From assembly GCA_045635565.1 (NCBI GenBank), contig JAZTVX010000077.1, positions 1 to 60,980 on the forward strand: a DNA stretch of 60,980 nt, read 5' to 3'. This DNA is from Alphaproteobacteria bacterium. GTDB lineage: Bacteria; Pseudomonadota; Alphaproteobacteria; CAAHEQ01; UBA3637. A program made the translations under genes and the position numbers. Shown piece after piece: positions 40,226 through 60,980 of the stretch (position 1 is the first letter of the stretch; the number at the start of each line of letters is the position of its first letter). The notes under the pieces are model-generated. The model saw only the letters and a list, made by a program, of their open reading frames with translations, was not told the origin of the DNA and searched no databases.

Positions 40226-40238
40226 TAAAAACAATATA

Positions 40239-43064: not shown

Positions 43065-43255
43065 TCTCCGCTTTTCAAACAAATGCACAAACGTGTGTTT
43101 TATATAAGAAAAAACAAAACTTGTCAATAATGACGCATACAAAACATCTTTTTAGTATTTTCAATATCCGTTGACCAAACAAACACATTCCCAACCAATA
43201 AAAAAAATCCATAAAGGCGTTTTTTATTAACCGAGTTCATTGTGCAATTTTTAAA

Positions 43256-43471: not shown

Positions 43472-43487
43472 AAAATTTTACTCCTAT

Positions 43488-43823: not shown

Positions 43824-43851
43824 ATTCTTTGTATTTCATAAAGTTTCTCCT

Positions 43852-44906: not shown

Positions 44907-44926
44907 TTATTTTCTCCTAAATTCTG

Positions 44927-45319
44927 TTATTTTTCCCGTATTTGATGCGGTAAGTATTTTTTTATAACCGGCAAATAAGTTGCCTTATATTCGGGATAAA
45001 AACGCATTAAAGTATCATAGGCATTAAGCGGTTTATCCGGTTTTGTCATTCTGGCACATTCCCAATCAATAATTGTGTCCAATAAATCATCCGGCGATTT
45101 TTTAAGATTATTTTTAACATGATGACGGTTGTGAATCCGATGAAATGTATGAACATCAGAAATACTCATCCAAAAGCAAAATAAATACATCAGTGGCTTT
45201 TCGGCATCATGCAAGTAACCGCTTAAAGTGTTTTTACCTCGCAATTGTTTTTCCACTTGTAAAAAAGCTTTTTTATGCTTTAACGTATAAAATATTTTTT
45301 GTATTTTTTCTTTGAACAT
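44927..45319 (-). CDS. small His-rich protein, DUF5662-like (HD-type motif)
   Basis: GYLHDAEKP ... HRIHNRHH ... IIDWECAR. The pattern is recalled from phage/Firmicute DUF5662 proteins and is a tentative call. Confidence 0.45.
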   Translation of the reverse strand: MFKEKIQKIFYTLKHKKAFLQVEKQLRGKNTLSGYLHDAEKPLMYLFCFWMSISDVHTFHRIHNRHHVKNNLKKSPDDLLDTIIDWECARMTKPDKPLNAYDTLMRFYPEYKATYLPVIKKYLPHQIREK

Positions 45320-45337
45320 TTCTTTTTCCTTTCAAGG

Positions 45338-45359
45338 AAAGAGGGGAGATCCCCTCTTT
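45338..45359 (-). other. GC-rich perfect 10-bp hairpin between two operon genes
   Basis: AAAGAGGGGA-ga-TCCCCTCTTT. There is no U-tract on the transcribed (minus) strand. Confidence 0.6.
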
Positions 45360-45362
45360 GGT

Positions 45363-46565: not shown

Positions 46566-46656
46566 TTTATTTTCTCCTCGACAGTAGGTTTTAATTGATT
46601 TGTCTCGACTGTCCCTACAAGACCCAAATCAATGGAAAAGTTGATCTCAGCCTTTC

Positions 46657-47190
46657 CTAAACAAGTCCATCTTCATAAAAATTCTTTTCAATTAACTCCT
46701 GATTTTCTGGATGGACAAACTCTTTGTAACGTTCATCTTGAAGAGCGATCATATCACGCACCATATTTCCCGATAAAAACGGAAAACTTTGGGTTGTTCT
46801 GGAACATAACCCTACATTTGGCACATCAGATGCAAAAAATAAATATTCCCGATTGTCCCCAACATACATAATATCTGGCCGAGGTCTGTCTGGCAATTCC
46901 TTATTGATTGTTTCCAAAACATGATAATTCCAAGGAATCCTCTCTGTATCCTTTACAGGAATAATTTGCAATCTGGCATAATCTGAACTTTTACGCCAAA
47001 CATTTTGAATCATTTTTTTGCGTATAAAATATGGCAGAGGATTCATATGAGTCCCGCTCTCTTGAGCAGAGCCAATTAAAACCGTTCCCTGTTCACATTC
47101 TTGCATCATTTGCTTAATTAATCGATCATGACCAATATGAAACGGTTGACATCGTAAAATACAAAATCCGTGTTTATATTTAAAAGTCAT
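46657..47190 (-). CDS. nicotinamide-nucleotide adenylyltransferase, archaeal/NadM type
   Basis: GFCILRCQPFHIGHDRLI matches the G(R)xQPxHxGH nucleotidyltransferase motif. Start moved to the ATG at 47190 (MTFKYKH). Confidence 0.75.
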   Translation of the reverse strand: MTFKYKHGFCILRCQPFHIGHDRLIKQMMQECEQGTVLIGSAQESGTHMNPLPYFIRKKMIQNVWRKSSDYARLQIIPVKDTERIPWNYHVLETINKELPDRPRPDIMYVGDNREYLFFASDVPNVGLCSRTTQSFPFLSGNMVRDMIALQDERYKEFVHPENQELIEKNFYEDGLV

Positions 47191-47295
47191 AAAAAAAACC
47201 TCTCTTTCGAAAGGCCAACACATCATCTTAGGATTACCCTATACATTGATGACTGGCCAAGTCTATTGTCCCCGCCCATTGCCCTCGGACGCCTG
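47191..47295 (-). promoter_or_regulatory. structured ~100-nt leader with terminator / RBS-sequestering hairpin (candidate riboswitch or attenuator)
   Basis: Minus-strand RNA. A long hairpin GGCCA-GTCATC...TAGG-GTAAT-CCTA...GATGA-TGTGT-TGGCC is followed by CCTTTC-GAAA-GAGAGG + U8, directly abutting the ATG. That stem contains the AGAGAGG RBS and shares its CC with the preceding helix. Confidence 0.4.
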
Positions 47296-47335
47296 AACAG
47301 GTATTATGTTAATACACAAAAAAAGCAGATGTCAA
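47296..47335 (-). promoter_or_regulatory. possible operon promoter
   Basis: Minus strand: TTGACA (47335-47330), about 18 nt, TAACAT. Confidence 0.35.
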
Positions 47336-47626
47336 TAAAAAAATACAAAAAACACAAATTATTTTGCAACATATTGATTAATATATTTTTAATAAGGGAT
47401 ATATAACAAAAAAAATACTGCTTTTTATTTTTTTAAACACCAAGTTGACGTTAAAATGATCTTCATTGAAATGATATTCTACATATCAACCTTATCCTAA
47501 CAAACGTATTAAATAACAGATGTATGCCAATAAGAAACAAACAAGCGCTGTCAAACTAAAATATACCGCCACACGGACTTAATGTACGCTAAAAAACATC
47601 GGGATTGGGATTGAAAAGCTTTGGTT

Positions 47627-47794
47627 TTATTGGCTTTCATCTTCTGTATAATGTTCTTCATTGCTAACCTCCGTTTGTGTCATGATCTCTATTCCCAATT
47701 TGAAAAAGTTAATCAAATTTAATTCATAATCACCTGCTTCTTGCTCTGATATATCGGGATACAAACGTAATATTTCTTCTTTGACGTTTTGCAT
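47627..47794 (-). CDS. possible acidic 55-aa protein
   Basis: Below the track cutoff. AAGGA lies 8 nt before the ATG at 47794. MQNVKEEILRLYPDISEQEAGDYELNLINFFKLGIEIMTQTEVSNEEHYTEDESQ. Confidence 0.3.
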   Translation of the reverse strand: MQNVKEEILRLYPDISEQEAGDYELNLINFFKLGIEIMTQTEVSNEEHYTEDESQ

Positions 47795-47909
47795 CAATTT
47801 TATCCTTTCATTTTGTTATGAAAGAATTTTGTCGCACTTCTTTTGATATGTAAAACCGTTTTTAAATTGATAAATTTTTTTATTATTATTTTGAAAGGCT
47901 AAGAAGATG

Positions 47910-47936
47910 AACCTCGATTTTATCAAAACCGAAGTT
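47910..47936. repeat. 27-bp imperfect palindrome, copy 1 (inverted relative to copy 2)
   Basis: AACCTCGATTTTATCAAAACCGAAGTT. It equals the reverse complement of 51712-51738 with 1 mismatch. On the minus strand it is not followed by a U-tract. Confidence 0.8.
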
Positions 47937-47979
47937 GTGTTTCATTAAGTAACATCAATGTCAGTTAATCGTAAAATTT

Positions 47980-48582
47980 TTAAGCCCATCCTTGACGAGA
48001 GATAAAACGCCGAAGCGTTGTGCGTCCAACACCCATAACTTTAGCAATTTGAGCTTTTGAAACGCCTTTATCCAATAAATCTTTGACTCGCTTTGAATTC
48101 TTTGATAGTTTTAATTTCTTGCTTGTGGCTGAGAATGGACGGCCCAGTTTTTTACCGCTGGCTTTTATGTTTGCCAAAGATGATTTTGTCCGTTGAGATA
48201 TTAAACTGCGTTCAATTTCAGCCGATATACCAAAAGCAAATGCCATTACTTTTGATTGAATATCTGCGCCTAGCCTAAAATTTTCTTTTATTGTCCAGAC
48301 CTGACATTCTTTGTTTAAACAAGTTTCTAATATGCGCATAACTTCTAACATTGAACGCCCCAAACGAGATATTTCACAAGAAATCAGGATATCTCCGGCT
48401 TTCATACTTTGAAGTAATTTTCCTAATTTTCTTTTATCTAAAGATTTTCTGGATGAAATAGTTTCTTCAATCCAATGCGTAATTTTGACTTTTTGAGCTT
48501 TTGCGAATTGTTTAATTTCATATTTTTGATGTTCACAGGTTTGTTTATCTGTTGAAACTCTGATGTAGCCAATAACTGCCAT
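47980..48582 (-). CDS. small serine recombinase (resolvase/DNA-invertase family)
   Basis: MAVIGYIRVSTDKQ (catalytic Ser), SRLGRS, and a C-terminal HTH (ISKAQIAKVMGVGRTTLRRF). GAGGAGG RBS before 48582. Confidence 0.9.
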   Translation of the reverse strand: MAVIGYIRVSTDKQTCEHQKYEIKQFAKAQKVKITHWIEETISSRKSLDKRKLGKLLQSMKAGDILISCEISRLGRSMLEVMRILETCLNKECQVWTIKENFRLGADIQSKVMAFAFGISAEIERSLISQRTKSSLANIKASGKKLGRPFSATSKKLKLSKNSKRVKDLLDKGVSKAQIAKVMGVGRTTLRRFISRQGWA

Positions 48583-48852
48583 GTTGTACCTCCTCATAAA
48601 TAAAGTTTAAAAAGTGGCTCATTTAATAGAACGTTTAAATCAACCACTTTTTTCATACTTTTGTATTTTTTGTATATTTTTAAAAAAGAATATGAAAAAT
48701 AAAGAAAATCTATCATTTCAAGAACTGTATAGACATTTTATTATCTTGAATAAAAGCAAGGTGACCACAAACGTTGGTTTGTGGTACAGCATAGATGTGT
48801 ACGTACATAATGATTCTTGTACATTTAATTTAATTTCTTATAAGGAGTAAAA

Positions 48853-50337
48853 ATGAAAAAATTATCATTTATGGCCGTTTTGGCAGTTTCAACAATATTA
48901 ATAGCTTGCAGTAGTGATAGTAGCGGAGGCGGAACTTCTTTTGTCTCTGGTAATGGAGGTGGTGGTTCTTCTATTCCTGTTACATCCTTACCTGATGGTT
49001 CAACGGTTCCAGAATCTGGGACAAGCATTCAAACGGTTAACAATTCACAACGCAGAACCGCAAATTATGAAAATGCTGTTGAATCCGTAAGTGGAACAGC
49101 AAGCGGTATAGCCGTATTAGCATCAGCACTATCTGCAGGTAATGCCACAGCTGAAGAAATTAACAATGCTTATAGCAATATGAATAAAATTTTGGTCAAT
49201 CAAGATTTTACGAATGCAACAAAAGAAGATATTTTATTGTCTTTAGCAATGGCCGGTGAAGATATTTCTGATTTAAAAGAAAAAACATTAGATGAATTAA
49301 AGGCAGAAGTTCAAAATTCAGATATTAAGTCAAAAGCAGAAGATGTTTATGCGAGATTAGGAACAGAACGTAATTTGTCTTTGAAAGATATTACATTCTA
49401 TGAGCCAGGAGATACCAATCGAGATGTTTATACATTTATTGTTGATACGAATGGTAATTTAACCGGATTTAAACAGGGTGATGAAGCTAATGCAACCAAC
49501 TTAAAATTTACTCGCACAGGAGATGGTATTTACAAAGCTAACGAAGGTTTAATAAAGTATGGTTTTGTTTACAAAGGAGAATATGGAACAACGTATGAAG
49601 AAGATGTCACCTTTTCTAAATCAACTCCGATTTCAGAAATAAGAGAGGCCTTGAAAAAAACAGCTCAAGCTGAATGGAGTGATAGTAGTGAATTAAATGC
49701 ATTATTGGCTTGGTTAGATACAGTAGATTTATCAAATCCTAAAGCTGATGACGAGGATTGTGATAATCAAAATACTTGTGTATATAAAAAGCATTCTGGA
49801 AATAATATAACTGCTCAACTTGATAGTGTAGGCAAAACAATTGCTTTAAAATACACTGATTTTGGTTCTATCAAATATGATGTAGACGGAGAAAAAGATG
49901 TTAATTTATTCTATGGTGGTTATGAAGCATTGTCTGCTAAAGCCTCTGATTTACCGCAAGTTGACACAGAAATGAATTTTGAAGGTAAAGCATTAGCCAA
50001 AGTTGAAACTGAAGTCGGTGATGACGATATTTCAAAATTGTATAATGGAACGGCTAATTTGACGTTTAAAGATGGTAAAGAAACATTAGTTGCTGATTTT
50101 ACCGATTGGCATAAAGTCACAATTGAAACAGATGGTTCAAAACCAAGTGGGTATGCTTTTACGTTTGATAAAACACCAACAGATACAAACTTGACAGTTC
50201 CATTTGGTGGACAGGAAGCCGTAGATATCAAATACTATGGTGAAAATCCTAAAAATCCAGATGAATTTGCCGGTTCTGCTTTTTACGAACAAGGTGACTT
50301 CAATGCCGAAATGGTATTTGGTGGAACACGGAAATAA
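48853..50337 (+). CDS. surface-lipoprotein candidate (TbpB/HpuA/fHbp-like C-terminal beta-barrel)
   Basis: Lipobox LIAC followed by a Gly/Ser-rich tether (SSDSSGGG...GNGGGGSS). C-terminus: NFEGKALA...GTANLTFKDGKETLVADF...IKYYGENPKNPDEFAGSAFY...AEMVFGGTRK, matching the SLP barrel pattern (F.G.A...G.A.L.vdF...FYG..a.E.aG.f...vFGa.k). Confidence 0.6.
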   Translation: MKKLSFMAVLAVSTILIACSSDSSGGGTSFVSGNGGGGSSIPVTSLPDGSTVPESGTSIQTVNNSQRRTANYENAVESVSGTASGIAVLASALSAGNATAEEINNAYSNMNKILVNQDFTNATKEDILLSLAMAGEDISDLKEKTLDELKAEVQNSDIKSKAEDVYARLGTERNLSLKDITFYEPGDTNRDVYTFIVDTNGNLTGFKQGDEANATNLKFTRTGDGIYKANEGLIKYGFVYKGEYGTTYEEDVTFSKSTPISEIREALKKTAQAEWSDSSELNALLAWLDTVDLSNPKADDEDCDNQNTCVYKKHSGNNITAQLDSVGKTIALKYTDFGSIKYDVDGEKDVNLFYGGYEALSAKASDLPQVDTEMNFEGKALAKVETEVGDDDISKLYNGTANLTFKDGKETLVADFTDWHKVTIETDGSKPSGYAFTFDKTPTDTNLTVPFGGQEAVDIKYYGENPKNPDEFAGSAFYEQGDFNAEMVFGGTRK

Positions 50338-50340
50338 TAA

Positions 50341-51702
50341 ATGTTATTACGTGTTTGTTTGACATTTATGATGTTGATCGGCTTGGGTGGAATAACTGCC
50401 CAAGCTTCAACATTAAACTCAGATGATAACAAAACAACCGTTGTCACAATGACACATGAGCAGACTTTAACTTTTGCTCAAGAGTTAGTTGAAAAAAATA
50501 AATTAGAGGATGCCAAAAAAGTTCTTCTCTTAAAACCGTTTCAACAAAAAGAATTAGAAATTGAACGTTTGTATTTGTTGGCTCAAATAGCAACAAAAGA
50601 AAATAAAATAGATAAAGCCATTGATATTTACTATTTTATTTTGGAACACCAACCAAACATTTCCAATATCCGCTTTCGATTAGCTGAGTTATACCTCATT
50701 CGCAAAGATTGGATACGGGCCGATTATCATTACAGATTGGCTTTGGCCGATAAAGAATTGCCTATTGTTATTCAAAATCGTATTAAGCAAGCACTTTATT
50801 ATATCAGACAAAATAAAAATTACAATTTTTGGTTTAATTTTGGTATAGCACCGGATAATAACGTCAATAATACAACATCCGGTGAACAGTGTATTATGAC
50901 TATGTTTGGTCCTATGTGTAATACATTAGATGACCCAGATAAAGATGTCGGTCTCAACATTACGGTTGGCGGCAATTATGAATTCAAATTGTCGGATAAT
51001 TGGCGTTTCAGAAATGAAGCATTGATTTATTCTTTAAAATATCAGGATAAAAAATATGATGATATTTATTTATCTTATGTTTTAGGACTTAAATACGTTT
51101 ATAAAAAAGGTGATGTGTTCTTTGGACCTACCTTTTCAAAAAGATTTTTAGGTCATAAATCATATAATTACACAACCGGTTTTATGATTGATACAGGATA
51201 TGATTTAACAAAGCAATTAAACGCACGTTTGTATTTGGCTTATACCCCAACACATTATGATGATTATGGTGATATTTTAGACGGAGATGTTAAAACAGCC
51301 CGTTTACGAATGTTTTATGCACTGGATTCATCAAAGTATTTGATATTCAAAACGGGTTATGAGTATGAAAAAACAAAAGATAAAACATATACAAATGACC
51401 GAGTTAATTTGGCTTTAGGCTTTGGGGCTGATATGCCTTGGGGGTTTCACATTTATGCAGAACCTTCAGTCTTATTTACTAATTACAAAGGAAAGCGTTG
51501 GACTGTAAAAGATTATGAATTTAAAGAAGTGAAAGAATGGGATATCACGCAACGTTATTCTGTCTCTTTATCAAACCGTAAAATTTCTTTATGGGGTTTA
51601 ATGCCAGTTTTAACCTATTCATATACAGATAAAAAATCAAATATTTGGCAACGAGAATATCAAAAATCACTTATTGAATTATCTATTCAAAAACGTTTTT
51701 AA
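50341..51702 (+). CDS. Slam-like outer-membrane protein (N-terminal TPR + DUF560 barrel; type XI secretion)
   Basis: Signal peptide, ~120-aa TPR-like region, then NYNFWFNFGIAPDNNVNNTT... and alternating beta-strand sequence ending in F. The gene starts 3 nt after the lipoprotein gene. Confidence 0.65.
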   Translation: MLLRVCLTFMMLIGLGGITAQASTLNSDDNKTTVVTMTHEQTLTFAQELVEKNKLEDAKKVLLLKPFQQKELEIERLYLLAQIATKENKIDKAIDIYYFILEHQPNISNIRFRLAELYLIRKDWIRADYHYRLALADKELPIVIQNRIKQALYYIRQNKNYNFWFNFGIAPDNNVNNTTSGEQCIMTMFGPMCNTLDDPDKDVGLNITVGGNYEFKLSDNWRFRNEALIYSLKYQDKKYDDIYLSYVLGLKYVYKKGDVFFGPTFSKRFLGHKSYNYTTGFMIDTGYDLTKQLNARLYLAYTPTHYDDYGDILDGDVKTARLRMFYALDSSKYLIFKTGYEYEKTKDKTYTNDRVNLALGFGADMPWGFHIYAEPSVLFTNYKGKRWTVKDYEFKEVKEWDITQRYSVSLSNRKISLWGLMPVLTYSYTDKKSNIWQREYQKSLIELSIQKRF

Positions 51703-51711
51703 TAATGAACT

Positions 51712-51745
51712 AACCTCGGTTTTGATAAAATCGAGGTTATTTTTT
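51712..51745 (+). terminator. 27-bp palindrome copy 2 with T-run (terminator of the Slam operon and/or recombination site)
   Basis: AACCTCGGTTTT-gat-AAAATCGAGGTT followed by ATTTTTT. Confidence 0.7.
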
Positions 51746-52020
51746 ACTTCCTGCCCCTAGGGGCATGTTTTGAAAATATCATAGTTATTGATGAAATTTT
51801 GTATTTCTAACCTTTGTATATGTGTAGGTAGAGGTTGAAATGAACAATTATACTAAATAAGCATAGCCTCTCATCGGCTCTCGCATGTAAAGGCTCTTGC
51901 AAAAAAACACTCCATTAACGATGTTGCATTTAATTTTGATGACTGGGATGTGCCGGTCGGGTTCCCGATGTCCTCTAGATGGCAGGTAGGGCTCCCGAGG
52001 TAGCCGTAGCAATAAGCGTG

Positions 52021-52485
52021 TTATAAGAACATCTTTTTCTCATCTAAACTCAGTCTGAATACATTCAACAATCTCTGGGATGAATTTTTGACATCCCGAC
52101 AAGGAAACATTGAAAACAAAGTCTTTTTTGAATTTTGAGTCCGTGTAAGGCTGAAAAAAAGGCTTTTTGAAAAACACTCTACACGGACCAGATTAAGTGA
52201 TTGTAAAACAAAGACTGCGCAAATAAAAAGTTGCCAGTGGCAAGTTTTTATGCGTAAAGCAATGAAACACAATGAATTCAAGTGGCAACGCAGAATGAAT
52301 TGATGTTGGAATTGGTCGCTATTTTGAGCGACTTATCTGTTTTGACTGGGCTGGCTGGATTGCTCGGGATAAATCCCTCGTCCTCATTCCATTCGGACCG
52401 TCCTAACGGACGTCTATTTCGCTATCGCTTCATGAACGAACCAACTATTCGTTGGCTCAAATCCTAACCAAACCAACCAATAAAA
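52021..52485. repeat. reiterated module copy R1 (tRNA-Gln flank + 100-bp insert + tRNA 3' relic + structured S segment)
   Basis: Aligns by eye with 58924-59390. Contains GACTGGGCTGGCTGGATT (52344-52361), 17/18 identical to the tRNA-Gln 3' end at 60911-60928. Confidence 0.85.
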
Positions 52486-52686
52486 TTTCTATAAAACAGA
52501 TTTTAATATTTTCATTAACAGATATCGATATCATTTAATTATTTGAGATTAAAAGTCATTTTAAACAAACGACTATTTATAAATTTTATTACAAGCAGTA
52601 AAAAAGAAAAAAACACGTTTTTTATTGACATTTATTTTTAATAATTTTACTATAAAACCATATTACGATGTATAGGAAAAATTTTA

Positions 52687-54432
52687 ATGAACTTATTAAA
52701 AATATCACTTCTTGTTTTTAGTTTTATATTGTTGTCCCATAGTTGTTTTTCAAATGATCTTGTTAACAATTTTTTAAAAGAAGAAAATTTGGAACACATG
52801 CTAAATGATTATAAAGTAAATTCTTTAAATTCAGAAGAATCCATTATTAAGAGATTAAACGATATTTTAACATCACCATTTAATGATAAATATAAAAAAG
52901 CAACTATAAAAGATTATTTAAGTTCCAAACAATCAATTGATTGGTATTTTTCTTATTCTCCCATGCATGCATCATATTATGATCCGCATGGATATCTTTT
53001 ATATTTAGACAATTTAAAAGAAAGAACCATGATTCAAAATTTTCAACTGTTGATGTTAAAGCATGTTTATCTGCCTGAATCGGTTGGAAATGATGCTTTT
53101 AATAAAGATGTAACGACAACCCATGAAAGTTTAAAAAATTATTTTGAAAGTCAAAATTTAGAAAAAGATTATCATTTAAGAATGATAAAGGAAAGTTATT
53201 ATAAAAAAATAGGAGTGGATTATTTTGCATGTTACACAAATTTTGACTGTTTTTTAGGTTTACTTCCTGAATGGTATGATTCTTCTAATGAGACCGTTTA
53301 TTTGCCCTGTGAATTAGCACAAAAATATGATAAGGTTGCATATTTACAAGACAAAGCATCCCCATTGAATTGTTTTTCTAAATTAACTTCAGATTGCCCA
53401 TTACATGAAAAATATCGATATCATCCAGATTTAGAAGACTATATAGCTCATGTTTTTTACGAGGGAATAGGTTACGTTGAATATTCTTATCAATGGTTAT
53501 TAGTAGCCCGAGCAGAATATGAATATTACACTAAAAAATATGTTCCAGATTTCAATATAGAAACACAACATGATTGGGGAAAATTTCCTCACAATGAATG
53601 GTCAATTCAATCTTATTATACATTCAAAAAATTTAATAAATTTATAAATTATGGTATTGGATATCAAAAGGCTCTTGAAATGCTAACAAATCATTATATT
53701 CATTACTTTAATGTTGAAAAAGAGAAAGCATATAATCGGGCTTTATATGTTTTAACTCTTTCCGTGTTTAAAAAGTCATGGCCTCCTATCCAGCCAGATA
53801 ACATAAAATATTTACTGTTAACTGGAGCTGATTGGGAAATGATAGAAAAAAAACATCCCAATATTCAAAATTATCATGATTTATTGAGATATAGTATCGA
53901 ATATCCCAAAAATTTGGAAAAACTTATTCAAATGGGAAAGAAAACAAAAAACTTTAATATTAATGTCGGTGATGAAGATTTGTCAAAAACAGCTCTTATG
54001 TGGGCCGCACAACATGGATATATTAAAAGTGTTAAATTATTAGTTGAAAATGGGGCTGATTTAAATCAACAGACTTCTGAAAATATTTGGTGTAACGGTA
54101 TTAACGCTTCTGTATCTAATTTGTGTGTACATAATAAAAAAAGAACAGCATTAATGTATGCGGCTCAAGAAGGGCATGAAGAAATTGTTCGATACTTAAT
54201 TGAAAAAGGAGCAGATAAAAACATAACAGATACTCGTGGAAAAACAGCTTATCATTATATGATAGGGGAAGCACCTTGGAAAAATCCTTATTATGAATCG
54301 ACAATTGGTGTTGGCATGACAACAAGTCGCTCTGCCAATGAACAAAAAACACTTTTTACTGATGAACAAATTAGAAAGTTGACCCCTCTTTTACTTCCAG
54401 ATCTTCCTTTGACTTCGGATAAAGAGTATTAA
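52687..54432 (+). CDS. secreted ankyrin-repeat protein
   Basis: Signal peptide MNLLKISLLVFSFILLSHSCFS. C-terminal ANK repeats (KTALMWAAQHGYIKSVKLLVENGADLN; RTALMYAAQEGHEEIVRYLIEKGADKN). Confidence 0.8.
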   Translation: MNLLKISLLVFSFILLSHSCFSNDLVNNFLKEENLEHMLNDYKVNSLNSEESIIKRLNDILTSPFNDKYKKATIKDYLSSKQSIDWYFSYSPMHASYYDPHGYLLYLDNLKERTMIQNFQLLMLKHVYLPESVGNDAFNKDVTTTHESLKNYFESQNLEKDYHLRMIKESYYKKIGVDYFACYTNFDCFLGLLPEWYDSSNETVYLPCELAQKYDKVAYLQDKASPLNCFSKLTSDCPLHEKYRYHPDLEDYIAHVFYEGIGYVEYSYQWLLVARAEYEYYTKKYVPDFNIETQHDWGKFPHNEWSIQSYYTFKKFNKFINYGIGYQKALEMLTNHYIHYFNVEKEKAYNRALYVLTLSVFKKSWPPIQPDNIKYLLLTGADWEMIEKKHPNIQNYHDLLRYSIEYPKNLEKLIQMGKKTKNFNINVGDEDLSKTALMWAAQHGYIKSVKLLVENGADLNQQTSENIWCNGINASVSNLCVHNKKRTALMYAAQEGHEEIVRYLIEKGADKNITDTRGKTAYHYMIGEAPWKNPYYESTIGVGMTTSRSANEQKTLFTDEQIRKLTPLLLPDLPLTSDKEY

Positions 54433-54485
54433 TTATCGTGAAGTTAGAATATCTATTGATAGAGTAGATTATAGATTGTAAATTG

Positions 54486-54665
54486 CGAGCAATTTATCCC
54501 TCATAAACTCGGGACCATCCTAATGGACGTCTATTTCACTGGGGCGTCATGAACGAACCAACTCTTGCCATTCGTTGGCTCAAATCCTAACCAAACCAAC
54601 CAATAAAAAAACCTCCACAAAGGAGGTTCTTTTTATTGGCTGGAGAAGTCTGGTAATACACGGAC
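54486..54665. repeat. module copy S2 (S segment + terminator hairpin + right end ...GGTAATACACGGAC)
   Basis: Aligns with 59270-59450. CCTCCACAAAGGAGG + TTCTTTTT hairpin. Confidence 0.8.
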
Positions 54666-54669
54666 TTTA

Positions 54670-55185
54670 TTATTTTACTTTCTGAATATATTTGGGGGGA
54701 ATAACGCCACCTTTGATAACGATAAGATAGTAACGAATAAAAGCAAAACGCCATCCCTTTTCATCATCTAAAATAGTGTAATCATTCGCTGTAAAATCAA
54801 TTTCAGTTAAATCAGAAATTTTATATAAGCCTTCATCATTTTTATTTTGAGGTTCTTTTTCCAACACGGAAGGACTTACATAAACGGCTTCTATCAACCC
54901 ATCTTTTTTAAGGGCGGAAATATCAATTTTAAATAAATCTGATGTTTCTATAAATTTTCTTATGCTAGGTGTATTTTGAGTGTGTTGCAGTGGTTCAATC
55001 AATAACCTAATTCCTCGGCTACGTCCGGCAAAGCAACTTTCCATCCACTTCACGATATCTGAATGTGTCGTTTTTCCTGAACGTTTTATATAGTAATTAA
55101 TATCTGCTTTTGGATTTTTAGCAAAAGACAGAATCCCTTCTGATAAAACATTATTCCTTTTTGCAACGTAATGGTAAAGATACAT
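54670..55185 (-). CDS. hypothetical protein (171 aa)
   Basis: ORF whose stop lies 4 nt from the module right end. The N-terminal MYLYHYV..N.LSEGIL vaguely recalls the start of ART/Tpt1/DarT-like folds. Unverified. Confidence 0.5.
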   Translation of the reverse strand: MYLYHYVAKRNNVLSEGILSFAKNPKADINYYIKRSGKTTHSDIVKWMESCFAGRSRGIRLLIEPLQHTQNTPSIRKFIETSDLFKIDISALKKDGLIEAVYVSPSVLEKEPQNKNDEGLYKISDLTEIDFTANDYTILDDEKGWRFAFIRYYLIVIKGGVIPPKYIQKVK

Positions 55186-55250
55186 ACTATTTCATCCTTT
55201 TTTGTTTTATGTTATAGTTAAACATTATAAAAATCAACTATAATTACCAT

Positions 55251-55464
55251 CTGCAATCTCTGGGATAAAATTTTGACATCCCAAGTCAGAAGCATTGAAA
55301 ACAAAGACTGCGCAAATAAAAAGTTGCCAGTGGCAAGTTTTTATGCGTAAAGCAATGAAACACAATGAATTCAAGAGGCAACGCAGAATGAATTGATGTT
55401 GGAATTGGTCGCTATTTCTAGCGACTTGTCTGTTTTGGCTGGAGAAGTCTGGTAATACACGGAC
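55251..55464. repeat. module copy R2 (short form)
   Basis: GGGAT...TTGACATCCC hairpin, 100-bp insert (55308-55407), GTCGCTATTTCTAGCGAC hairpin (55408-55425), then TTGGCTGG|AGAAGTCTGGTAATACACGGAC. Confidence 0.85.
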
Positions 55465-55572
55465 TCATTTTTTGTTAAAACTCCATCTAATACATTAAAA
55501 ATTGTTGATAAAATTTTTTATTTGATGTAGACTTCAAAAGTTAGCTATTTGCCATATTTGAGAAAGAAAAAA

Positions 55573-56247
55573 ATGAATGAATTAATTGGTTGTGGATTGT
55601 ACTCTATTCCAGAAGCTTCAAAATTAACAAAAGTTCCTAACACAACAATTTATCGCTGGATTAGAGGATACAAGTACCGTTCAGATAATACTATAAAAAA
55701 AGTAAAACCTTTGTGGACTAGAGATATTCCTGAATTTGATGGTGAAAATGCAATTAGTTTTTTGGATTTATTAGAAGTACGCTTTATAAATGCTTTTCGA
55801 AAAGCTGGTGTGAGTTGGAAGTTCATTAGAGAAGCTGCATTCAAAGCGCAAGAAGTTTTTAATACGACGCATCCATTTACTACCCAAAGATTTAGAACTG
55901 ATGGTAGGCATATATTTTCGAGTTTTTCAGAAAACAACAGCAAATTAACATTAGATTTAAATAATGCAAATTATGCCATGGAAAAAGTTATAGAACCATT
56001 TTTCAAAGATATAGAATTTGAAAGTAATCAAGCAGCAAGATGGTATCCTTACAAAAATAAAAAAATAGTGATTGATCCAGAACGAGCTTTTGGACGTCCG
56101 ATTTTAAAAGAATCTGGGATAGCAACAGATATACTGTATGCTGCTTTCAATACGGAGAAAGATGAAAAATTAGTTGCAGAATGGTATGACATCGACATTG
56201 CTTCCGTTAAATCAGCAGTGAATTATGAAAAAGGGTTGAGAACATGA
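55573..56247 (+). CDS. HTH + DUF433-like protein (putative antitoxin)
   Basis: LYSIPEASKLTKVPNTTIYRWIRG (HTH). The C-terminal ERAFGRPILKESGIATDILYAAF...VAEWYDIDIASVKSAVNYE matches the DUF433 pattern. ATG at 55573 preferred over TTG at 55549. Confidence 0.6.
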   Translation: MNELIGCGLYSIPEASKLTKVPNTTIYRWIRGYKYRSDNTIKKVKPLWTRDIPEFDGENAISFLDLLEVRFINAFRKAGVSWKFIREAAFKAQEVFNTTHPFTTQRFRTDGRHIFSSFSENNSKLTLDLNNANYAMEKVIEPFFKDIEFESNQAARWYPYKNKKIVIDPERAFGRPILKESGIATDILYAAFNTEKDEKLVAEWYDIDIASVKSAVNYEKGLRT

Positions 56248-56663
56248 ATTTTCTGTTTGATAATAATATATCACCTAAAATAGCTCATGCCGCACGGGAA
56301 CTTTTTCAAAATAACAAACATAAAATAATTCATTTAACTGATAAATTCACTGCAAACACTCAAGATGAAGTCTGGCTGAGGCAGTTAATAAAAGAAGGTA
56401 ATTGGGCATTAATCAGTATTGATCGTTTTCAAAAGAATGCTTTTGAAAAAGCTGCATTAGATGATCCTAATTTAATTTCGTTTATACTTAATAATAGTTG
56501 GTCAAAACTTCGATTTGTTGATCAATCATATAGATTAATAAGATGGATACCTCAAATTATTTCCACGGCCGAATCAAATTCATGTGGTGTTTTTGCTATT
56601 CCTATAAATTATGGATCTGGAAAACCTGAACGAATAGAAATAAAACATAAAAAGCACAAATAA
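56244..56663 (+). CDS. DUF5615/PIN-like protein (putative toxin)
   Basis: MNFLFDNNISPKIAHAAR... is the typical DUF5615 N-terminus. ATGA overlap with the upstream gene. Confidence 0.55.
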   Translation: MNFLFDNNISPKIAHAARELFQNNKHKIIHLTDKFTANTQDEVWLRQLIKEGNWALISIDRFQKNAFEKAALDDPNLISFILNNSWSKLRFVDQSYRLIRWIPQIISTAESNSCGVFAIPINYGSGKPERIEIKHKKHK

Positions 56664-56678
56664 TTTATCATATAATTT

Positions 56679-56945
56679 TTATACATCCAAGTTTTCGAAC
56701 ACATTAAGATTGTTAACTGCGATTTCAGGCCATTGTTTGTAATCTGGGCAAGAAAGCAGTTTGTCAAAGGGTTTATTTAGTTCGTACTCCAATGTTTTGC
56801 CGTTTAATTTGCAATCTTTTAACAGTAATTTTAACAATGCACTTTTTTGAGAAGTCGTCGCTATATCAAAAACATGTTTTAAATCACTTGCGATTGAAAC
56901 GATATTTATAATCTTATCCCGCTTATAAGAACATCTTTTCACATC
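56679..56945 (-). pseudogene. 3' remnant of a recombinase-like gene, copy 1
   Basis: ...KRCSYKRDKIINIVSIASDLKHVFDIATTSQKSALLKLLLKDCKLNGKTLEYELNKPFDKLL... The LL.L...NC.L.gK.L.y.L.KPFD tail recalls the C-termini of large serine recombinases (from memory, unverified). There is no 5' part. Confidence 0.45.
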
Positions 56946-57180
56946 AAATTTGAGTCTGAATACAGTAGCCTCTCTCAGGGATGATTTTTTGACATCCCAA
57001 GACAGAAGCATTGAAAACAAAGACTGCGTAAATAAAAAGTTGCCAGTGGCAAGTTTTTATGCGTAAAGCAATGAAACACAATGAATTCAAGTGGCAACGC
57101 AGAATGAATTGATATTGGAATTGGTCGCTATTTCTAGCGACTTATCTGTTTTGGCTGGAGAAGTCTAGTAATACACGGAC
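56922..57180. repeat. module copy R3 (short form)
   Basis: Same architecture as R2, with the 100-bp insert at 57024-57123. Confidence 0.85.
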
Positions 57181-57271
57181 TAAAAATATATAAGTATCTT
57201 TTTTTCTTGAAAATTTTGAATAACAATGATATTATACAACCAATTGTGATTAATAAAGGCATAGTTAAAGT

Positions 57272-58150
57272 ATGGAAATCAAAATTTATCCGTTTTTAAT
57301 TTCTACAGTATTAGATAGTCAGAATAGTCTATCTGTAGAAGACTTTGCAAATTATTTAACTAAAAATTCTAACAATAAATATACTATCTACGATAAAGAA
57401 CGAGTTATAGTATTACAAAACATCCCTGATACTAACTATATTGCCGGTGTTTTATTATCATTTAGAGACTATGATGCTCATTGTAAAGTTATCCCTGACG
57501 GTCAAGGTGGCTATTCTGCAAGAATCGAAACCATAAGAGATGGTGCTGAATATAATTTTTTTGTGCTTAATAAAAAATCCTTAAAAGGTCTTTGGTTAAC
57601 TTATTTTAACTCTGCTTCAATTAGTGTATTAGATAAAATCTTAAGAAATATATTTAATCAATATGCTGAGACCAATGAAATAGAAGTTAATAGAAGATTT
57701 AAACTAAAAAACAAAGTTAAAGTCAATATGATTTTATCCAGAGAAACTATTGCTGATGCCCTCTCTGCATTTAGTTCTATTTATTCTGTAGAATACACTG
57801 AGATAAATAAACAACAACATTTGTTTGTTCCAGATACAATTAATGTGAAAAAAACAAAATTATTACTAAAAAGAAATAATATTATAGATAATATTAAAAA
57901 TAGTGTTGAAGCCTTAGTTTGTAGTGGAGAAGCAGAAAATATATGTGTAGCAGGTAAGAATCACCAGGGAAAAATCGAACGTATTAACTTGGATGTTATT
58001 TTTAGACCTTGGGTAGTATATGACTACGATGAAATTACAAGAACCTTGCAAAACTTTAATACGAAAAACTTACTTCATCATGAAATTATTACCAATCTCA
58101 TGATGTGTATCAACAATAATATAAGATATAGGAGAATTATTGAAGGATGA
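57272..58150 (+). CDS. hypothetical soluble protein (292 aa), first gene of a two-gene cassette
   Basis: Clean ORF. No motif recognised. Confidence 0.6.
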   Translation: MEIKIYPFLISTVLDSQNSLSVEDFANYLTKNSNNKYTIYDKERVIVLQNIPDTNYIAGVLLSFRDYDAHCKVIPDGQGGYSARIETIRDGAEYNFFVLNKKSLKGLWLTYFNSASISVLDKILRNIFNQYAETNEIEVNRRFKLKNKVKVNMILSRETIADALSAFSSIYSVEYTEINKQQHLFVPDTINVKKTKLLLKRNNIIDNIKNSVEALVCSGEAENICVAGKNHQGKIERINLDVIFRPWVVYDYDEITRTLQNFNTKNLLHHEIITNLMMCINNNIRYRRIIEG

Positions 58151-58650
58151 TGAAAAAAATTTTTTTTATTATAGTATTTTTTTTGATTCCATTTCTTTTG
58201 TGTTTTTTCACAAATCCAATTTATCATTTTTTGACAGATACATTAAAAGTGGATTTTAAAAATTCTAGATGTTGGGATAGTTGGATATCTGATTATCTAA
58301 CTATAGGTAGTTTTATGTTTGCTGTGCAAAGTTTCCTTATTCCATTTTTAAAAAAATCTTTGTATGACTCAAAGGAGTATAAGGATTATATTAAGGACGA
58401 ATACCCAGAACATTACGATGATGAGCAGTATAGACCTTTATGTAATCTATCTAATTTTCTTTTTATATCTACATTATTATCGTTTATATCGGCATTGTTC
58501 ATGTTTGTATTTGTTTTTGTTAGAGCCCCCTTTATTATTAACTTAACTATCTATTGTGGAGTACTTTCTTTTGCAAGTCTTATAATATCGTTATTTTTAA
58601 TGCAACAAAATTTTACTATTATGTTTAAAAATAGAAAAAATATCTTGTAA
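58147..58650 (+). CDS. hypothetical 4-TM membrane protein (167 aa), second gene of the cassette
   Basis: ATGA overlap with the upstream gene. Four long hydrophobic segments. Confidence 0.6.
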   Translation: MMKKIFFIIVFFLIPFLLCFFTNPIYHFLTDTLKVDFKNSRCWDSWISDYLTIGSFMFAVQSFLIPFLKKSLYDSKEYKDYIKDEYPEHYDDEQYRPLCNLSNFLFISTLLSFISALFMFVFVFVRAPFIINLTIYCGVLSFASLIISLFLMQQNFTIMFKNRKNIL

Positions 58651-58679
58651 CAAAAAATAAATTTTAGATTACTATTTCC

Positions 58680-58946
58680 TTACACCACCACTTTATCAAA
58701 CTCGTCTAAATAATTGATAGTAATTTCAGGCCATTGTTTGTAATCTGGGCAAGAAAGCAGTTTATCAAATGGTTTATTTAGTTCATACTCCAATGTTTTG
58801 CCGTTTAATTTGCAATCTTTTAACAGTAATTTTAACAATGCACTTTTTTGAGAAGTCATCGCTATATCAAAAACATGTTTTAAATCACTTGCGATTGAAA
58901 CGATATTTATAATCTTATCCCGCTTATAAGAACATCTTTTTACATC
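58680..58946 (-). pseudogene. 3' remnant of a recombinase-like gene, copy 2
   Basis: Identical to copy 1 except T->M and the last ~13 residues (TINYLDEFDKVVV versus AVNNLNVFENLDV). Confidence 0.45.
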
Positions 58947-59450
58947 AAATTTGAGTCTGAATACATCTGCCTCTCTCTGGGATGATTTTTTGACATCCCG
59001 GCAAGGAAACATTGAAAATAAAGGATTTTTTGGATTTTGAGTCCGTGTAAGGCTGAAAAAAGAGCTTTTTGAAAAACACTGTACACGGACCAATATAAGT
59101 GATTGTAAAATAAAGACTGCGTAAATAAAAAGTTGCCAGTGGCAAGTTTTTATGCGTAAAGCAATGAAACACAATGAATTCAAGTGGCAACGCAGAATGA
59201 ATTAATGTTGGAATTGGTCGCCATTTTTGACAACTTACACGATTTGGCTGGGCTGGCTGGATTGCTCGGGATAAATCCCTCGTCCTCATTCCATTCGGAC
59301 CGTCCTTCGGACGTCTATTTCGCTATCGCTTCATGAACGAACCAACTCTTGTCATTCGTTGGCTCAAATCCTAACCAAACCAACCAATAAAAAAAACCTC
59401 CACAAGGGAGGTTCTTTTTATTGGCTGGAGAAGTCTGGTAATACACGGAC
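58924..59450. repeat. module copy R4 (most complete form)
   Basis: Flank with GTCCGTGTA...TACACGGAC inverted repeat, 100-bp insert (59117-59216), tRNA 3' relic GGCTGGGCTGGCTGGATT (59246-59263, 18/18), S segment, opposed tRNA-half relic (59351-59386), hairpin, and right end ...CACGGAC overlapping the stop of the 59450 gene. Confidence 0.85.
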
Positions 59451-60487
59451 TAATCTTCATTCTCCATAGATATTTTTTTCACATTTGTCATGCTTATTTC
59501 ATTTAGCAATGAAATAATGTTTAAAAGCTCCGCCATATTTTCATAAAATTTCAGAAATAATCGTTCATCCAGAAAAGAATATTCTATCTTCAAAAATTGA
59601 AAAAATTTTACATCAGTATGCATAGCAAGCAACACCTTATTTTCAAAAAAAGAAACATCAATTCTAGGAGTATTAAATTGTTTTTTTAATCTATTAAGGA
59701 ACATTAACAAACAAATCAAATTTTCTTTATCCTCTAAATTCGGTTGCGTTGAAAAAATTTTAAAATAATGGTTAAAATAATCATCCTCTAAACTCAGTTG
59801 ATAAAAATCACCTTCCAATATTTGGGGTACCTCAATATCACAAATGCTAGAATTCTGAAGCATATGATAAAACATATTTTGTTGATTTAAAATAACAGTA
59901 TGTTTTTCAAAACTTTTATTTAACTCACAGCAAATAAATATTCCTTTAAAAGGACATTGATAACTATATTGATATTTGCGTAAGCATTGTGGCGTCATAA
60001 AACACCATCTAGGCCCAATATTATTAATAATAACACTTTCTTGCACCAAACAATTCATCGCTTCATGTTTAAAACAAAAACCAAAAGGGGTTCTAACATG
60101 ATCAGCATATCGAAATAATCCGCTTTTTAATATTATATCCTTTGTAATAAATGAATTAGTTACCTCACCTTCTTTAAAAAAATTAAAAATAAGTGGGATA
60201 ATTTCAAAGTGAACCCTTTTAAGAAATAAATTGACTTTAAAGCGATAGATTACATAAGGAATAACGCCAAAAAAAACAGCGAAAAGCAAAAAAATACCAT
60301 TATCGTAAACAGCTAGAAGCTTAAAAGATAATAGTATTAATATGAACGTTAACAAAAAACAGATTTTTTTTATTTTCTTACCTAAAGAAATATACAGTTT
60401 TCTTTGAGTTTCCAAAGGCTCAAAAATGGAAAATTTTGATTTTATAAAAGACAAAAAACGCTCGTTTTTTTCAAAATTATTTTGCAT
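59450..60487 (-). CDS. hypothetical membrane protein (2 TM near N-terminus; DUF3137-like?)
   Basis: 345-aa ORF. The family guess is weak. Confidence 0.5.
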   Translation of the reverse strand: MQNNFEKNERFLSFIKSKFSIFEPLETQRKLYISLGKKIKKICFLLTFILILLSFKLLAVYDNGIFLLFAVFFGVIPYVIYRFKVNLFLKRVHFEIIPLIFNFFKEGEVTNSFITKDIILKSGLFRYADHVRTPFGFCFKHEAMNCLVQESVIINNIGPRWCFMTPQCLRKYQYSYQCPFKGIFICCELNKSFEKHTVILNQQNMFYHMLQNSSICDIEVPQILEGDFYQLSLEDDYFNHYFKIFSTQPNLEDKENLICLLMFLNRLKKQFNTPRIDVSFFENKVLLAMHTDVKFFQFLKIEYSFLDERLFLKFYENMAELLNIISLLNEISMTNVKKISMENED

Positions 60488-60647
60488 TAAATATTATCCC
60501 CAAATTTCATATTTTTATACATACAATTATAATGCTTTGAAAAAATAAAATCAAATAAAATTGTAGTTTTTTCAAAAAGATGTATTTCATAACATCAATA
60601 TCACCCAATTAAAAGTTTGAAGTATTTCTTTTTGTGTTTGTCAAAAT

Positions 60648-60674
60648 AACCTTGACTTTATAAAAATCGAGGTT
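60648..60674. repeat. 27-bp palindrome, degenerate copy 3
   Basis: AACCTTGACTTTATAAAAATCGAGGTT, in the same orientation as copy 2. It sits at the inner edge of the native tRNA flank. Confidence 0.55.
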
Positions 60675-60701
60675 GGGGACATAAAAAATAATGCACCACA
60701 C

Positions 60702-60909
60702 CACATCAAATTTAAGTCTGAAACCACACTACTATCACCGAGACAAAAATTTGGCATCACAAGACAGGAGTATTGTAAAATAAGGCTTTTTTGGATTTTG
60801 AGTCCGTGTAGGGCTGAAAAAAGAGCTTTTTGAAAAACTCTGTACACGGACCAATATAAGTGCTTGTAAAATAAAGAAAAAGTCGCTATTTCTAGCGACT
60901 TATCTGTTT
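60702..60909. repeat. module copy R5 = native downstream flank of tRNA-Gln, including its terminator
   Basis: Lacks the 100-bp insert. GTCGCTAGAAATAGCGAC + TTTTTC on the minus strand is the tRNA terminator (60882-60899). Confidence 0.8.
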
Positions 60910-60980
60910 TGGCTGGGCTGGCTGGATTCGAACCAACGAATGACGGTATCAAAAACCGTTGCCTTACCACTTGGCGACAG
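60910..60980 (-). tRNA. tRNA-Gln (anticodon UUG), 5' end (about 4 nt) beyond the window
   Basis: Minus strand: ...CTGTCGCCAAGTGGTAAGGCAACGGTTTTTGATACCGTCATTCGTTGGTTCGAATCCAGCCAGCCCAGCCA. Anticodon loop TTTTGAT, T-loop TTCGAAT, encoded CCA. It closely parallels E. coli tRNA-Gln. Confidence 0.9.

Follow-up and report, generated by a model that had tools for sequence, protein, structure and literature searches.

What process repeats the end of a tRNA gene, together with its flank, along a bacterial chromosome and leaves one or two genes between successive copies? The question is raised by the right end of contig JAZTVX010000077.1, whose 60,980 nucleotides we call the window. Five to six copies of the 3′ end of a tRNA-Gln(UUG) gene and its downstream flank are spread over 52.0–60.9 kb there and delimit units of one or two genes. 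The host belongs to a little-known lineage of gut Alphaproteobacteria that is known only from metagenome-assembled genomes (MAGs). A first-pass annotation of this DNA had proposed either serial capture at one tRNA with decay of the integrases or a cassette exchanger driven by homologous recombination. Four junction types on one core, recombinase remnants and differing cargo in relatives bear out the serial capture, and we consider it probable that 47.56–60.98 kb is a genomic island at tRNA-Gln(UUG), formed by tandem site-specific accretion of related integrative elements and later decayed.

The tRNA-Gln gene occupies 60910–60980 on the minus strand, with its 5′ end cut off by the end of the window; the minus strand is referred to below as the tRNA orientation. 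Rfam model RF00005 places the gene at 60913–60980 (48 bits), ARAGORN misses it, and the UUG anticodon was read directly from the sequence. It matches the complete tRNA-Gln genes of two related loci (L008 and L012) at 100%. Its last 19 nt, AATCCAGCCAGCCCAGCCA (60910–60928), are proposed to be the left arm plus core of attB.

The repeat modules were compared by blastn (51–61 kb against the whole window), a repeat search and MAFFT alignment, all of which confirmed them where they had first been noticed. R1 (52021–52485) and R4 (58924–59392) are 90% identical over 471 nt (E=0), R2 (55257–55465) and R3 (56973–57181) are 95% identical, and so are 56722–57022 and 58723–59023 (E 5e-134). The copies had been called nearly identical, which holds among R1–R4 but not for the tRNA-proximal flank (60703–60877), with 81% identity to R4 and 76% to R1. 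The blastn self-search gave no module copy in 1–51 kb; only a 27-nt palindrome at 47910–47936, here called pal, emerged later. The motif GTCCGTGTA occurs 10 times in the window (0.18 expected), every time inside a module, and there are 26 terminator-like hairpins against 3.3 expected.

The full module R4 (58924–59451, minus strand) reads, in tRNA orientation, A (59429–59451, a 23-nt pseudo-tRNA P arm), the core CCAGCCAA (59421–59428), A2 with a terminator hairpin (rest of A2, 59389–59420), B (59354–59388), C (59264–59353), D (59245–59263, the same 19 nt as the tRNA end), hairpin E (59217–59244), F (59103–59216), palindrome G with GTCCGTGTA arms (59024–59102), hairpin H (58924–59023) and segment I, described below. 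R3 (56923–57181, minus) and R2 (55251–55465, minus) have the shorter order A-core-E-F-H. The segments of R3 are A 57159–57181, core 57151–57158, E 57124–57150, F 57014–57123 and H 56923–56998, and those of R2 are A 55443–55465, core 55435–55442, E 55408–55434, F 55298–55407 and a truncated H. A partial copy, Rp (54486–54666, minus), consists of A (54644–54666), core (54636–54643), the rest of A2 (54605–54635), B (54570–54604) and the first half of C. R1 (52021–52485, minus) runs B (52447–52485), C (52362–52446), D (52343–52361), E (52315–52342), F (52201–52314), G (52124–52200) and H (52021–52123). The tRNA-proximal copy R5 (60702–60909, minus) has the order tRNA-core-E-G-H′, with the terminator hairpin E at 60880–60901 and the GTCCGTGTA arms of G at 60802–60810 and 60843–60851. 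The GGGATG...CATCCC hairpin that had been ascribed to this flank is degenerate there, as its H is, and the 114-nt F of R1–R4 is absent. A degenerate copy of pal (AACCTCG...CGAGGTT) follows at 60644–60674.

Two kinds of deletion relate the modules to each other. G has short direct repeats at its borders and 10-nt inverted termini; in R4 it is bordered by the direct repeat TTTATTTT(A)CAA, and in R2 and R3 it is missing exactly between short direct repeats; in R3 it was lost between the two 12-nt copies. The second deletion concerns the tRNA end, of which D is a copy: the 19-nt sequence recurs at 59245–59263 with no mismatch and at 52343–52361 with one, in the two places where a tRNA 3′ end had been seen, although with a length of 17–18 nt. 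R4 has the structure A-core-[A2-B-C]-19 nt-E, whereas R2 and R3 have A-core-E. The earlier suggestion that R2 and R3 derive from R4 by deletion fits, and the difference corresponds to one recombination between the two tRNA-end core copies (the TTGGCTGG repeats of the first-pass annotation). An equivalent description is the insertion of a 165-nt A2-B-C piece.

Evidence for site-specific recombination comes from the core, for which we tabulated all occurrences and their flanks in the window and in related loci. These 8 nt, CCAGCCAA, are the last of the tRNA region and are present at every unit boundary. In the window they are found at the tRNA (60916), at A-type junctions (59428, 57158, 55442 and 54643) and in copy D (59251). 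A tRNA-core-E junction occurs at 60916 and in L022; A-core-E at 57158 and 55442, in L001 and in L014; A-core-A2 at 59428 and 54643 and at L012 2667; and tRNA-core-A2 at L008 1606 and L012 3457. Four arm combinations around one 8-nt core are the attB/attR/attP/attL pattern of conservative site-specific recombination. Rp is an attP-type junction, and internal junctions of this type are expected where like elements integrate in tandem.

Arm A (AGTCCGTGTATTACCAGACTTCT; its counterpart in L010 is GGTTCGCAAACCGTACATCGTTT, followed by CCAGCCAA) resembles a degenerate copy of the tRNA T-arm and acceptor, and in the MAFFT alignment its left edge is base-sharp against unrelated cargo. The last 25 nt of tRNA-Gln and tRNA-Tyr, read from the sequence, are identical at 19 of 25 positions. 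Between the Gln and Tyr versions of the element the P arm is kept and the core follows the local tRNA end (CCAGCCAA for Gln, CTCCACCAGTTC for Tyr). A motif of arm A also co-varies with that of palindrome G, in three classes: GTCCGTGTA, GTCCGATA and GCTCGGAA. The third class, with GCTCGGAA replacing GTCCGTGTA in arm A, was seen at L033 7741–7790 and 8290–8500 and at L014 4522–4561. L033 also has GCTCGGAA in a palindrome next to arm A, and Gln-type junction relics lie inside its tRNA-Tyr island.

Which enzyme might act on this core is suggested by segment I. Large serine recombinases (LSRs) consist of an N-terminal Resolvase catalytic domain, a Recombinase domain, a zinc ribbon and a C-terminal coiled-coil region. 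Segment I (58683–58922, minus) encodes the last 80 codons (residues 453–532) of such a protein, fused to H at TTATAA/GCGGGATAAG. A second C-terminal remnant (56682–56921, minus) has the identical fusion junction, and the two copies are 95% alike. A word-indexed search with segment I gave only short relatives, the longer of which pointed to a serine-recombinase C-terminus (phrog_95, E 0.006). Exhaustive phmmer then led to a 532-aa protein, P0015, with 86% identity over 121 residues and the Pfam domains Resolvase, Recombinase and Zn_ribbon_recom; by tblastn both window remnants align to its residues 453–532 at 84% identity. They are remnants and not genes, the catalytic, Recombinase and zinc-ribbon domains of the full LSR being gone. 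The decay of integrases proposed in the first-pass annotation is thus visible, but in a large serine recombinase and not in a tyrosine integrase of the tRNA type. Since one deletion junction is common to both remnants, they did not decay independently but are copies of one another. The same H-LSR junction is found in L008 and in several metagenome contigs, which indicates that the H-I block spread as a unit and that units U3 and U4, which contain the remnants, are partly paralogous.

In related islands, at tRNA-Gln and at tRNA-Tyr, this position is held by an intact LSR gene (L021, L022 and L033–L035). The proteins are 77–87% identical to P0015, and the order in these relatives is LSR, variable cargo, A and core. 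In L021, GTCCGTGTA and TATAAT precede the LSR, which is followed by an antisense DUF6119 gene and an A-like arm with core. L022 has tRNA-Arg, tRNA-Gln, E, G, H, a segment J, the pal terminator, a faintly Rep-like open reading frame (ORF; REP_ORF2-G2P, E 0.03), DUF3768, two methyltransferases, DpnII, pal, a small ORF, the LSR and the start of a PDC-M53B-like gene; the contig ends before the right end of the island. The 147-kb contig L033, with an LSR 77% identical to P0015, harbors a complete 11-kb island at tRNA-Tyr. Its left part reads tRNA-Tyr-E-G-H, followed further on by a resolvase fragment, pal, a 60-aa ORF, GTCCGTGT and the LSR. To the right of the LSR are an AAA ATPase similar to NsnB/AriA with a 202-aa protein, the junction TTAGTCCGTGCCATGCAAGACTTCCT/CCACCAGTTC, E-G-H and then eptA.

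No recombinase domain was detected by Pfam in the cassette ORFs of the window, and no tyrosine recombinase among about 55 ORFs of the arrays scanned with Pfam, permissive E-values included. The LSR is favored as the integrase of the element family because it is the only recombinase recurrently tied to these islands, in a fixed position relative to arm A; its assignment to this role could go either way. Two sets of palindromes were considered as its sites. G was ruled out as a split crossover site, since it is intact at both ends of the L033 island, and the pal palindromes were ruled out as att sites, since both halves are alike in all copies and not hybrid. Other arrangements of LSR genes were seen in passing. 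Distant LSRs (about 27% identical) start 185–260 nt downstream of tRNA-Phe in four environmental contigs (L023, L024, L025 and L029). Two tandem LSR genes at L031 3738–7304 encode proteins of 542 and 539 aa, each 43% identical to P0015; the pair adjoins a restriction-modification/Vsr cluster in a layout that recalls ccrA/ccrB.

These observations suggest a model in which the P arm of attP would be the degenerate T-arm/acceptor copy in segment A, followed by the 8-nt core that is the same as the end of the tRNA region. The P′ arm would bring a replacement tRNA terminator (E or A2) and then the hairpin-rich F, G and H. Integration would restore an intact tRNA and leave the site targetable again. 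Because the tRNA would be regenerated each time, new elements would stack at it and push older ones outward. Deletions may then have removed the backbone and left one or two cargo genes per unit between att scars, as in cis-mobilizable elements (CIMEs): H fused to LSR codon 453, G lost between 12-nt repeats and recombination between core copies would be examples. The recombinase of the family would most likely be the LSR whose C-terminus survives twice in the window. With no intact LSR gene in the window, the array would no longer move, barring the action in trans of a copy elsewhere in the genome. A secondary role of homologous recombination is clear from the H-I junction that the remnants share, from the loss of G and from the B-C repeats on either side of an ankyrin gene.

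The model also changes the reading of the flanks. The copy beside the tRNA, taken as native in the first-pass annotation, is more likely an arm of the newest element. The oldest flank would be R1 together with 51708–52020 (minus), which are colinear with the tRNA-Gln flank of L022. This continuation, 82% identical to L022 1422–1792, runs from the GC-rich segment J (51917–52020) to a pal terminator (51712–51738). Segment J, about 100 nt and GC-rich within an AT-rich region, is kept after hairpin H in several arrays (also L018 3494–3597 and L022 1499–1618) and is fused straight to an LSR remnant in L018 and L019; it has no Rfam match.

The array had been thought to start at 52021, but related sequence extends left to 47562. 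The region 47562–47975 (minus) contains pal (47910–47936), an intact ORF of about 55 aa (MQNVKEEIL..., from its translation) and an GTCCGTGT site (47571–47578). It is 94.5% identical over 415 nt to L022 8538–8952, just upstream of the LSR of L022, and the homology to intact elements ends about 10 nt beyond the GTCCGTGT site, where the LSR promoter and gene would come; it thus represents LSR-upstream backbone without the LSR. The pal copies at 47910–47936 and 51712–51738 form an inverted pair of 27 nt with one mismatch and enclose 3.8 kb, a segment that may be invertible or exchangeable. Enclosed are an intact small serine recombinase (47980–48597, minus; 205 aa, Resolvase + HTH_7, Pfam 4.5e-33) and, at 48853–51702 (plus), a surface lipoprotein (494 aa) and a Slam outer-membrane translocon (453 aa; Pfam SlipAM 2e-40), whose orthologues in L017 have 72% and 98% amino-acid identity, respectively. 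In L022 the corresponding slot between pal copies holds the Rep-like, DUF3768 and DpnII restriction-modification genes. By tblastn in the related loci the small resolvase is not near other arrays; only a truncated homologue was found, directly upstream of the LSR in L033–L035. From these comparisons the island appears to span at least 47.56–60.98 kb, with the small resolvase inside it and Slam and the lipoprotein as probable cargo.

Between the modules are five cargo units, on both strands and with their own upstream regions. U5 (59450–60487, minus) encodes a 345-aa DUF3137 membrane protein whose stop codon overlaps arm A. U4 (57272–58650, plus, antisense to the tRNA) encodes a 292-aa orphan and a 167-aa protein with multiple transmembrane segments, with overlapping stop and start codons and no family assigned to either. 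U3 (55549–56663, plus) holds an HTH_66/DUF433 gene and a PIN_10 gene. This pair, the only window cargo with such a family assignment, suggests a toxin-antitoxin-like system by its domains, and two ENA contigs (L001 and L002) carry an identical pair beside these modules. U2 (54670–55185, minus) encodes a 171-aa orphan with a homologue that is placed differently in another array (L018 8567–9103). U1 (52687–54432, plus) encodes a 581-aa ankyrin-repeat protein with an N-terminal hydrophobic leader; its cassette is bordered by direct repeats of about 95 nt that comprise B and part of C (52395–52485 and 54512–54608). Module ends were earlier described as abutting gene stops. This applies to the two minus-strand cassettes only (stops at 59450 and 54670), whereas in plus-strand cassettes the gene start faces the module, some 85–90 nt away. 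PADLOC found nothing convincing in the window cargo, and exact-protein look-ups with Slam and DUF3137 gave no match.

Cargo turnover is evident in relatives. A 24-mer of the repeat module occurs in 15 stretches from about a dozen species-level MAGs, all labelled Alphaproteobacteria bacterium and several from yak or roe-deer gut. At least six other species-level MAGs have the same architecture at tRNA-Gln with unrelated cargo, and comparison of the locus (L008/L017, L012, L014, L016, L010, L018 and L022) showed the same modules with differing cargo. The roe-deer MAG, in which L017 and L008 lie on one contig, encodes the Slam protein at 98% identity and none of the cargo of the window array. Its order is Slam, 260 aa, module, 102/191/308 aa (the last with ankyrin repeats), module, DUF6119, I-H-G-F-E-D-C-B-A2 and tRNA-Gln. 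Cargo in relatives is often defense-like, including an Mrr type IV restriction endonuclease (5e-84), an AAA ATPase similar to AriA/NsnB, PDC-M53B and DpnII restriction-modification, and NYN comes after the LSR remnant in L018, L019 and L020. A phage origin was rejected after IMG/VR gave 0 matches for F or A-core.

Segment F deserves separate attention. It is 114 nt long, occurs four times in the window and also in L003–L017, and is 81–98% conserved across species-level MAGs, except for one inverted copy in L015 (76%). An alignment of 15 copies folds into two hairpins, the second followed by a T-run; 99.1% of cells are paired over 23 pairs, with 9 compensatory pairs against 0–3 in slid controls, and Rfam gave no match at E ≤ 5. 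Where F is present it replaces the T-run after hairpin E; neither the tRNA-proximal flank nor L022 has it. In most of the 15 stretches with F there is also a tRNA gene on the strand of F, and F is found 3′ of at least six tRNA species, in the same orientation and about 35 nt to about 1.4 kb away for tRNA-Thr, -His, -Met, -Lys and -Gly. At tRNA-His, F and a terminator lie between 19-nt repeats of the tRNA end. F also flanks anmK in L009 and L011; the 435-aa ORF beside it there, considered as an integrase, is the housekeeping gene AnmK itself. A small protein gene in F (MRKAMKHNEFKWQRRMN, plus strand) was likewise ruled out, because single-base indels break the frame and keep the hairpin. We interpret F as a structured element that belongs to the P′ arm in this element family and may be a small RNA produced by read-through from the tRNA.

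The B-C block is another structured piece. On the plus strand (52362–52485, 54525–54604 and 59264–59388) it is hairpin-rich and tRNA-like, with an acceptor-like tail and a T-arm-like stem-loop, which in L008 and L017 is a perfect GTTGG-GCCGAAC-CCAAC; the block and the tRNA-Gln side converge on a bidirectional terminator that they share. Over a stretch of 39 nt the three window copies are 100% identical. No Rfam family matches it apart from a sub-threshold RtT match (52353–52483, E 0.77).

Several points weigh against accretion by an LSR. The view of the genome is limited to 61 kb, and no excision product, circle or empty site was observed. Because the two remnants and their left arms have one deletion junction in common, independent integration cannot account for all units, and at least one must be the product of duplication or homologous recombination. 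E-G-H arms stand on both sides of elements, and Campbell-type homologous integration could therefore explain some of the repetition. The LSR is separated from the A-core junction by 1–2 kb and, in L022, from the tRNA by about 7 kb; it could be cargo or the enzyme of another site. Identity blocks of 8–19 nt at tRNA 3′ ends are classically a mark of tyrosine integrases. Serine-integrase att sites are about 40–50 bp long, with imperfect dyad symmetry around a central dinucleotide, and by eye no such symmetry surrounds CCAGCCAA. Measured from the core, the GTCCGTG motif of the P arm lies about 5 nt farther out than GTTCGAA does in the tRNA arm, a spacing that we take, as a lead only, to fit the half-site geometry of serine-integrase attP and attB.

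Could the array instead be a cassette exchanger in which the 200–500-nt modules serve as portable homology for RecA-dependent crossovers or Campbell-type insertion of circles, with no dedicated recombinase? The modules are long (up to 471 nt) and 76–96% identical, U3 and U4 share the H-LSR fusion junction, so that one was copied from the other, and the precise loss of G from R2 and R3, the repeats of about 95 nt around the ankyrin cassette and the E-G-H-type arms at both ends of the L033 island also speak for it. Homology-driven breakpoints, however, are not expected at the same 8-nt core with four arm combinations in several genomes, nor would the core of the P arm adapt to the target tRNA or the left edge of arm A be base-sharp against unrelated cargo. 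Homologous recombination has its place as a secondary process that leaves the precise shared core unexplained, and as the whole explanation it is unlikely. More improbable still, though not by far, is a platform served in trans, where an outside recombinase (the small resolvase at 47980–48597 or a gene beyond the window) would read F, G and GTCCGTGTA and insert or excise cassettes at tRNA 3′ ends in an integron-like manner. The absence of recombinases from units with sharply conserved arm boundaries speaks for it, as do the E-F-G grammar 3′ of tRNA-Thr, -His, -Met, -Lys, -Gly and -Tyr, the compensated fold of F, the co-variation of the arm A and G motifs and the small resolvase as a conserved backbone gene; the GTCCGTGTA-type motif also resembles what we take to be the resolvase half-site consensus TGTCYNNTA, again only a lead. 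On the other side, cassettes lie in both orientations with their own upstream regions, no recombinase gene is fixed beside the arrays, the resolvase is not seen at other arrays and is truncated in L033–L035, the intactness of G at both L033 ends means that it is not a crossover site, and remnants and intact LSR elements account for the units as decay products.

A broader form of the platform reading, somewhat less doubtful than the narrow one but still improbable, makes the E-F-G-H and A modules a lineage-wide docking platform at many tRNA genes (Gln, Tyr, Thr, His, Met, Lys and Gly). Trans-acting serine recombinases (the LSR, the small resolvase or both) would recognize the pseudo-tRNA arm and folded accessory elements, retargeting would occur by swaps of an 8–12-nt core, and F, as a new structured element of RNA or DNA, would control or insulate the cassettes. 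The least probable explanation is a chance cluster of ordinary dispersed intergenic repeats, terminator-bearing and similar to repetitive extragenic palindromes or miniature inverted-repeat transposable elements, with an incidental likeness to the tRNA end. F and G do behave as presence/absence blocks (F is missing in R5 and L022, and G has direct repeats and inverted termini), F also stands beside the housekeeping gene anmK, and terminator-like hairpins are enriched. Yet the module self-search gave no copy in the other 51 kb of the window, just the short pal at 47910–47936 emerging, most F-bearing stretches have a same-strand tRNA gene within the distances given above, and exact 19-nt copies of the tRNA end and the four-junction pattern are not incidental.

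Outside the island, GC content falls to 27–36% from about 38 kb rightwards (the window as a whole has about 36%), and the region left of the island may be accessory DNA too. Genes at 38000–47500 include a nicotinamide mononucleotide transporter and F420-ligase-like, cytidylyltransferase-like and HIT-domain proteins. From its translation, a 1510-aa ORF at 32788–37320 reads like a resistance-nodulation-division (RND) efflux pump to which an outer-membrane-factor-like C-terminal part is fused, and a 363-aa membrane-fusion-like protein comes after it. The window also encodes, at 6649–6998, a two-piece (permuted) alpha-type tmRNA (RF01849, 244 bits) with the tag peptide ANDNFAPVAMAA, which helped to assign the host to the Alphaproteobacteria.

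The first-pass annotation knew of no described system with this structure, but both halves of the accretion model have precedents. Integrative and conjugative or mobilizable elements (ICEs and IMEs) accrete with CIMEs, as in ICESt1/CIME of Streptococcus thermophilus and the tRNA-Lys composites of S. agalactiae: new integration into a resident att site gives tandem arrays with att repeats between units, and decayed, integrase-less units occur in them (PMC5704250). As in such accretion islands, the locus combines tRNA-end direct repeats at unit boundaries and four junction types with recombinase-bearing intact members and unit variation among relatives. It shares with them site-specific integration at a gene or tRNA 3′ end and decayed units that keep attL/attR after loss of the recombinase. 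It differs in having at least six stacked units shrunk to 1–2 genes, no conjugation or mobilization genes seen, associated recombinases of the serine type only and an uncultured gut alphaproteobacterium as host. Tycheposon-linked islands of Prochlorococcus also grow serially at a tRNA, with tandem elements parted only by a partial tRNA copy, fragmented integrases, scattered partial tRNAs, most variation near the tRNA and defense cargo; 27 of 937 elements carry an LSR (10.1101/2020.12.28.424599). Serial integration, partial tRNA copies, decayed recombinases and defense genes among the cargo are common to both. The hallmark deep-branching tyrosine recombinase and replication genes of tycheposons were not found here, and the conserved E-F-G-H arms and the pseudo-tRNA P arm are not described for them.

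The closest serine-recombinase analogue is the composite of the staphylococcal cassette chromosome (SCC) type, such as SCCmec with the arginine catabolic mobile element (ACME) and psi-SCC, or the Enterococcus cassette chromosome (PMC6222049). Likenesses are the LSRs, a target at the 3′ end of a conserved gene, direct repeats for each cassette, tandem arrays with recombinase-less pseudo-cassettes and, in the relative L031, paired LSR genes similar to ccrAB. The target in the window is, however, a tRNA 3′ end and not rlmH (orfX), and its LSR, a putative integrase, is a different family member. Chromosomal integron arrays likewise have 1–2-gene cassettes with many orphans and toxin-antitoxin-like pairs, separated by structured repeats that start 0–4 nt from gene stops. 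The window showed no IntI, attI or Pc, its cassettes have both orientations and room for their own promoters, and its repeats are att scars with a tRNA end and not attC. An integron was ruled out, given cassettes on both strands and no IntI-like ORF by Pfam on 38–61 kb and inspection of translations. By its defining genes the array is neither an integron nor a tycheposon. In the rtT repeats of the E. coli tyrT operon (RF00391), too, a tRNA 3′ end and its flank are reiterated downstream of the gene, but the window match is below the Rfam threshold. Repeats of that kind are short, head-to-tail and without cargo genes.

The logic of accretion is therefore already known, and the points worth following are F, an unclassified structured element, and the retargetable pseudo-tRNA arm. 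The locus provides a worked case, resolved to the base at its junctions, of the growth and decay of an island at a single tRNA in a little-known lineage seen only in MAGs, and the 720 relatives found at E ≤ 1e-30 point to a large family of tRNA-linked serine recombinases. Should the LSR prove to be the integrase, the conserved pseudo-tRNA P arm, whose core can be exchanged (Gln versus Tyr), and a natural set of attB, attP, attL and attR sites would be of interest for genome engineering with serine integrases. The broader platform reading, if true, would describe a tRNA-anchored serine-recombinase analogue of the integron that concentrates defense genes. In relatives the slot between the LSR and arm A acts as a hotspot for defense-like cargo (type IV restriction endonuclease, AriA/NsnB-like AAA ATPase, PDC-M53B and NYN), which makes the orphan pairs of the window candidates for new defense or toxin-antitoxin systems.

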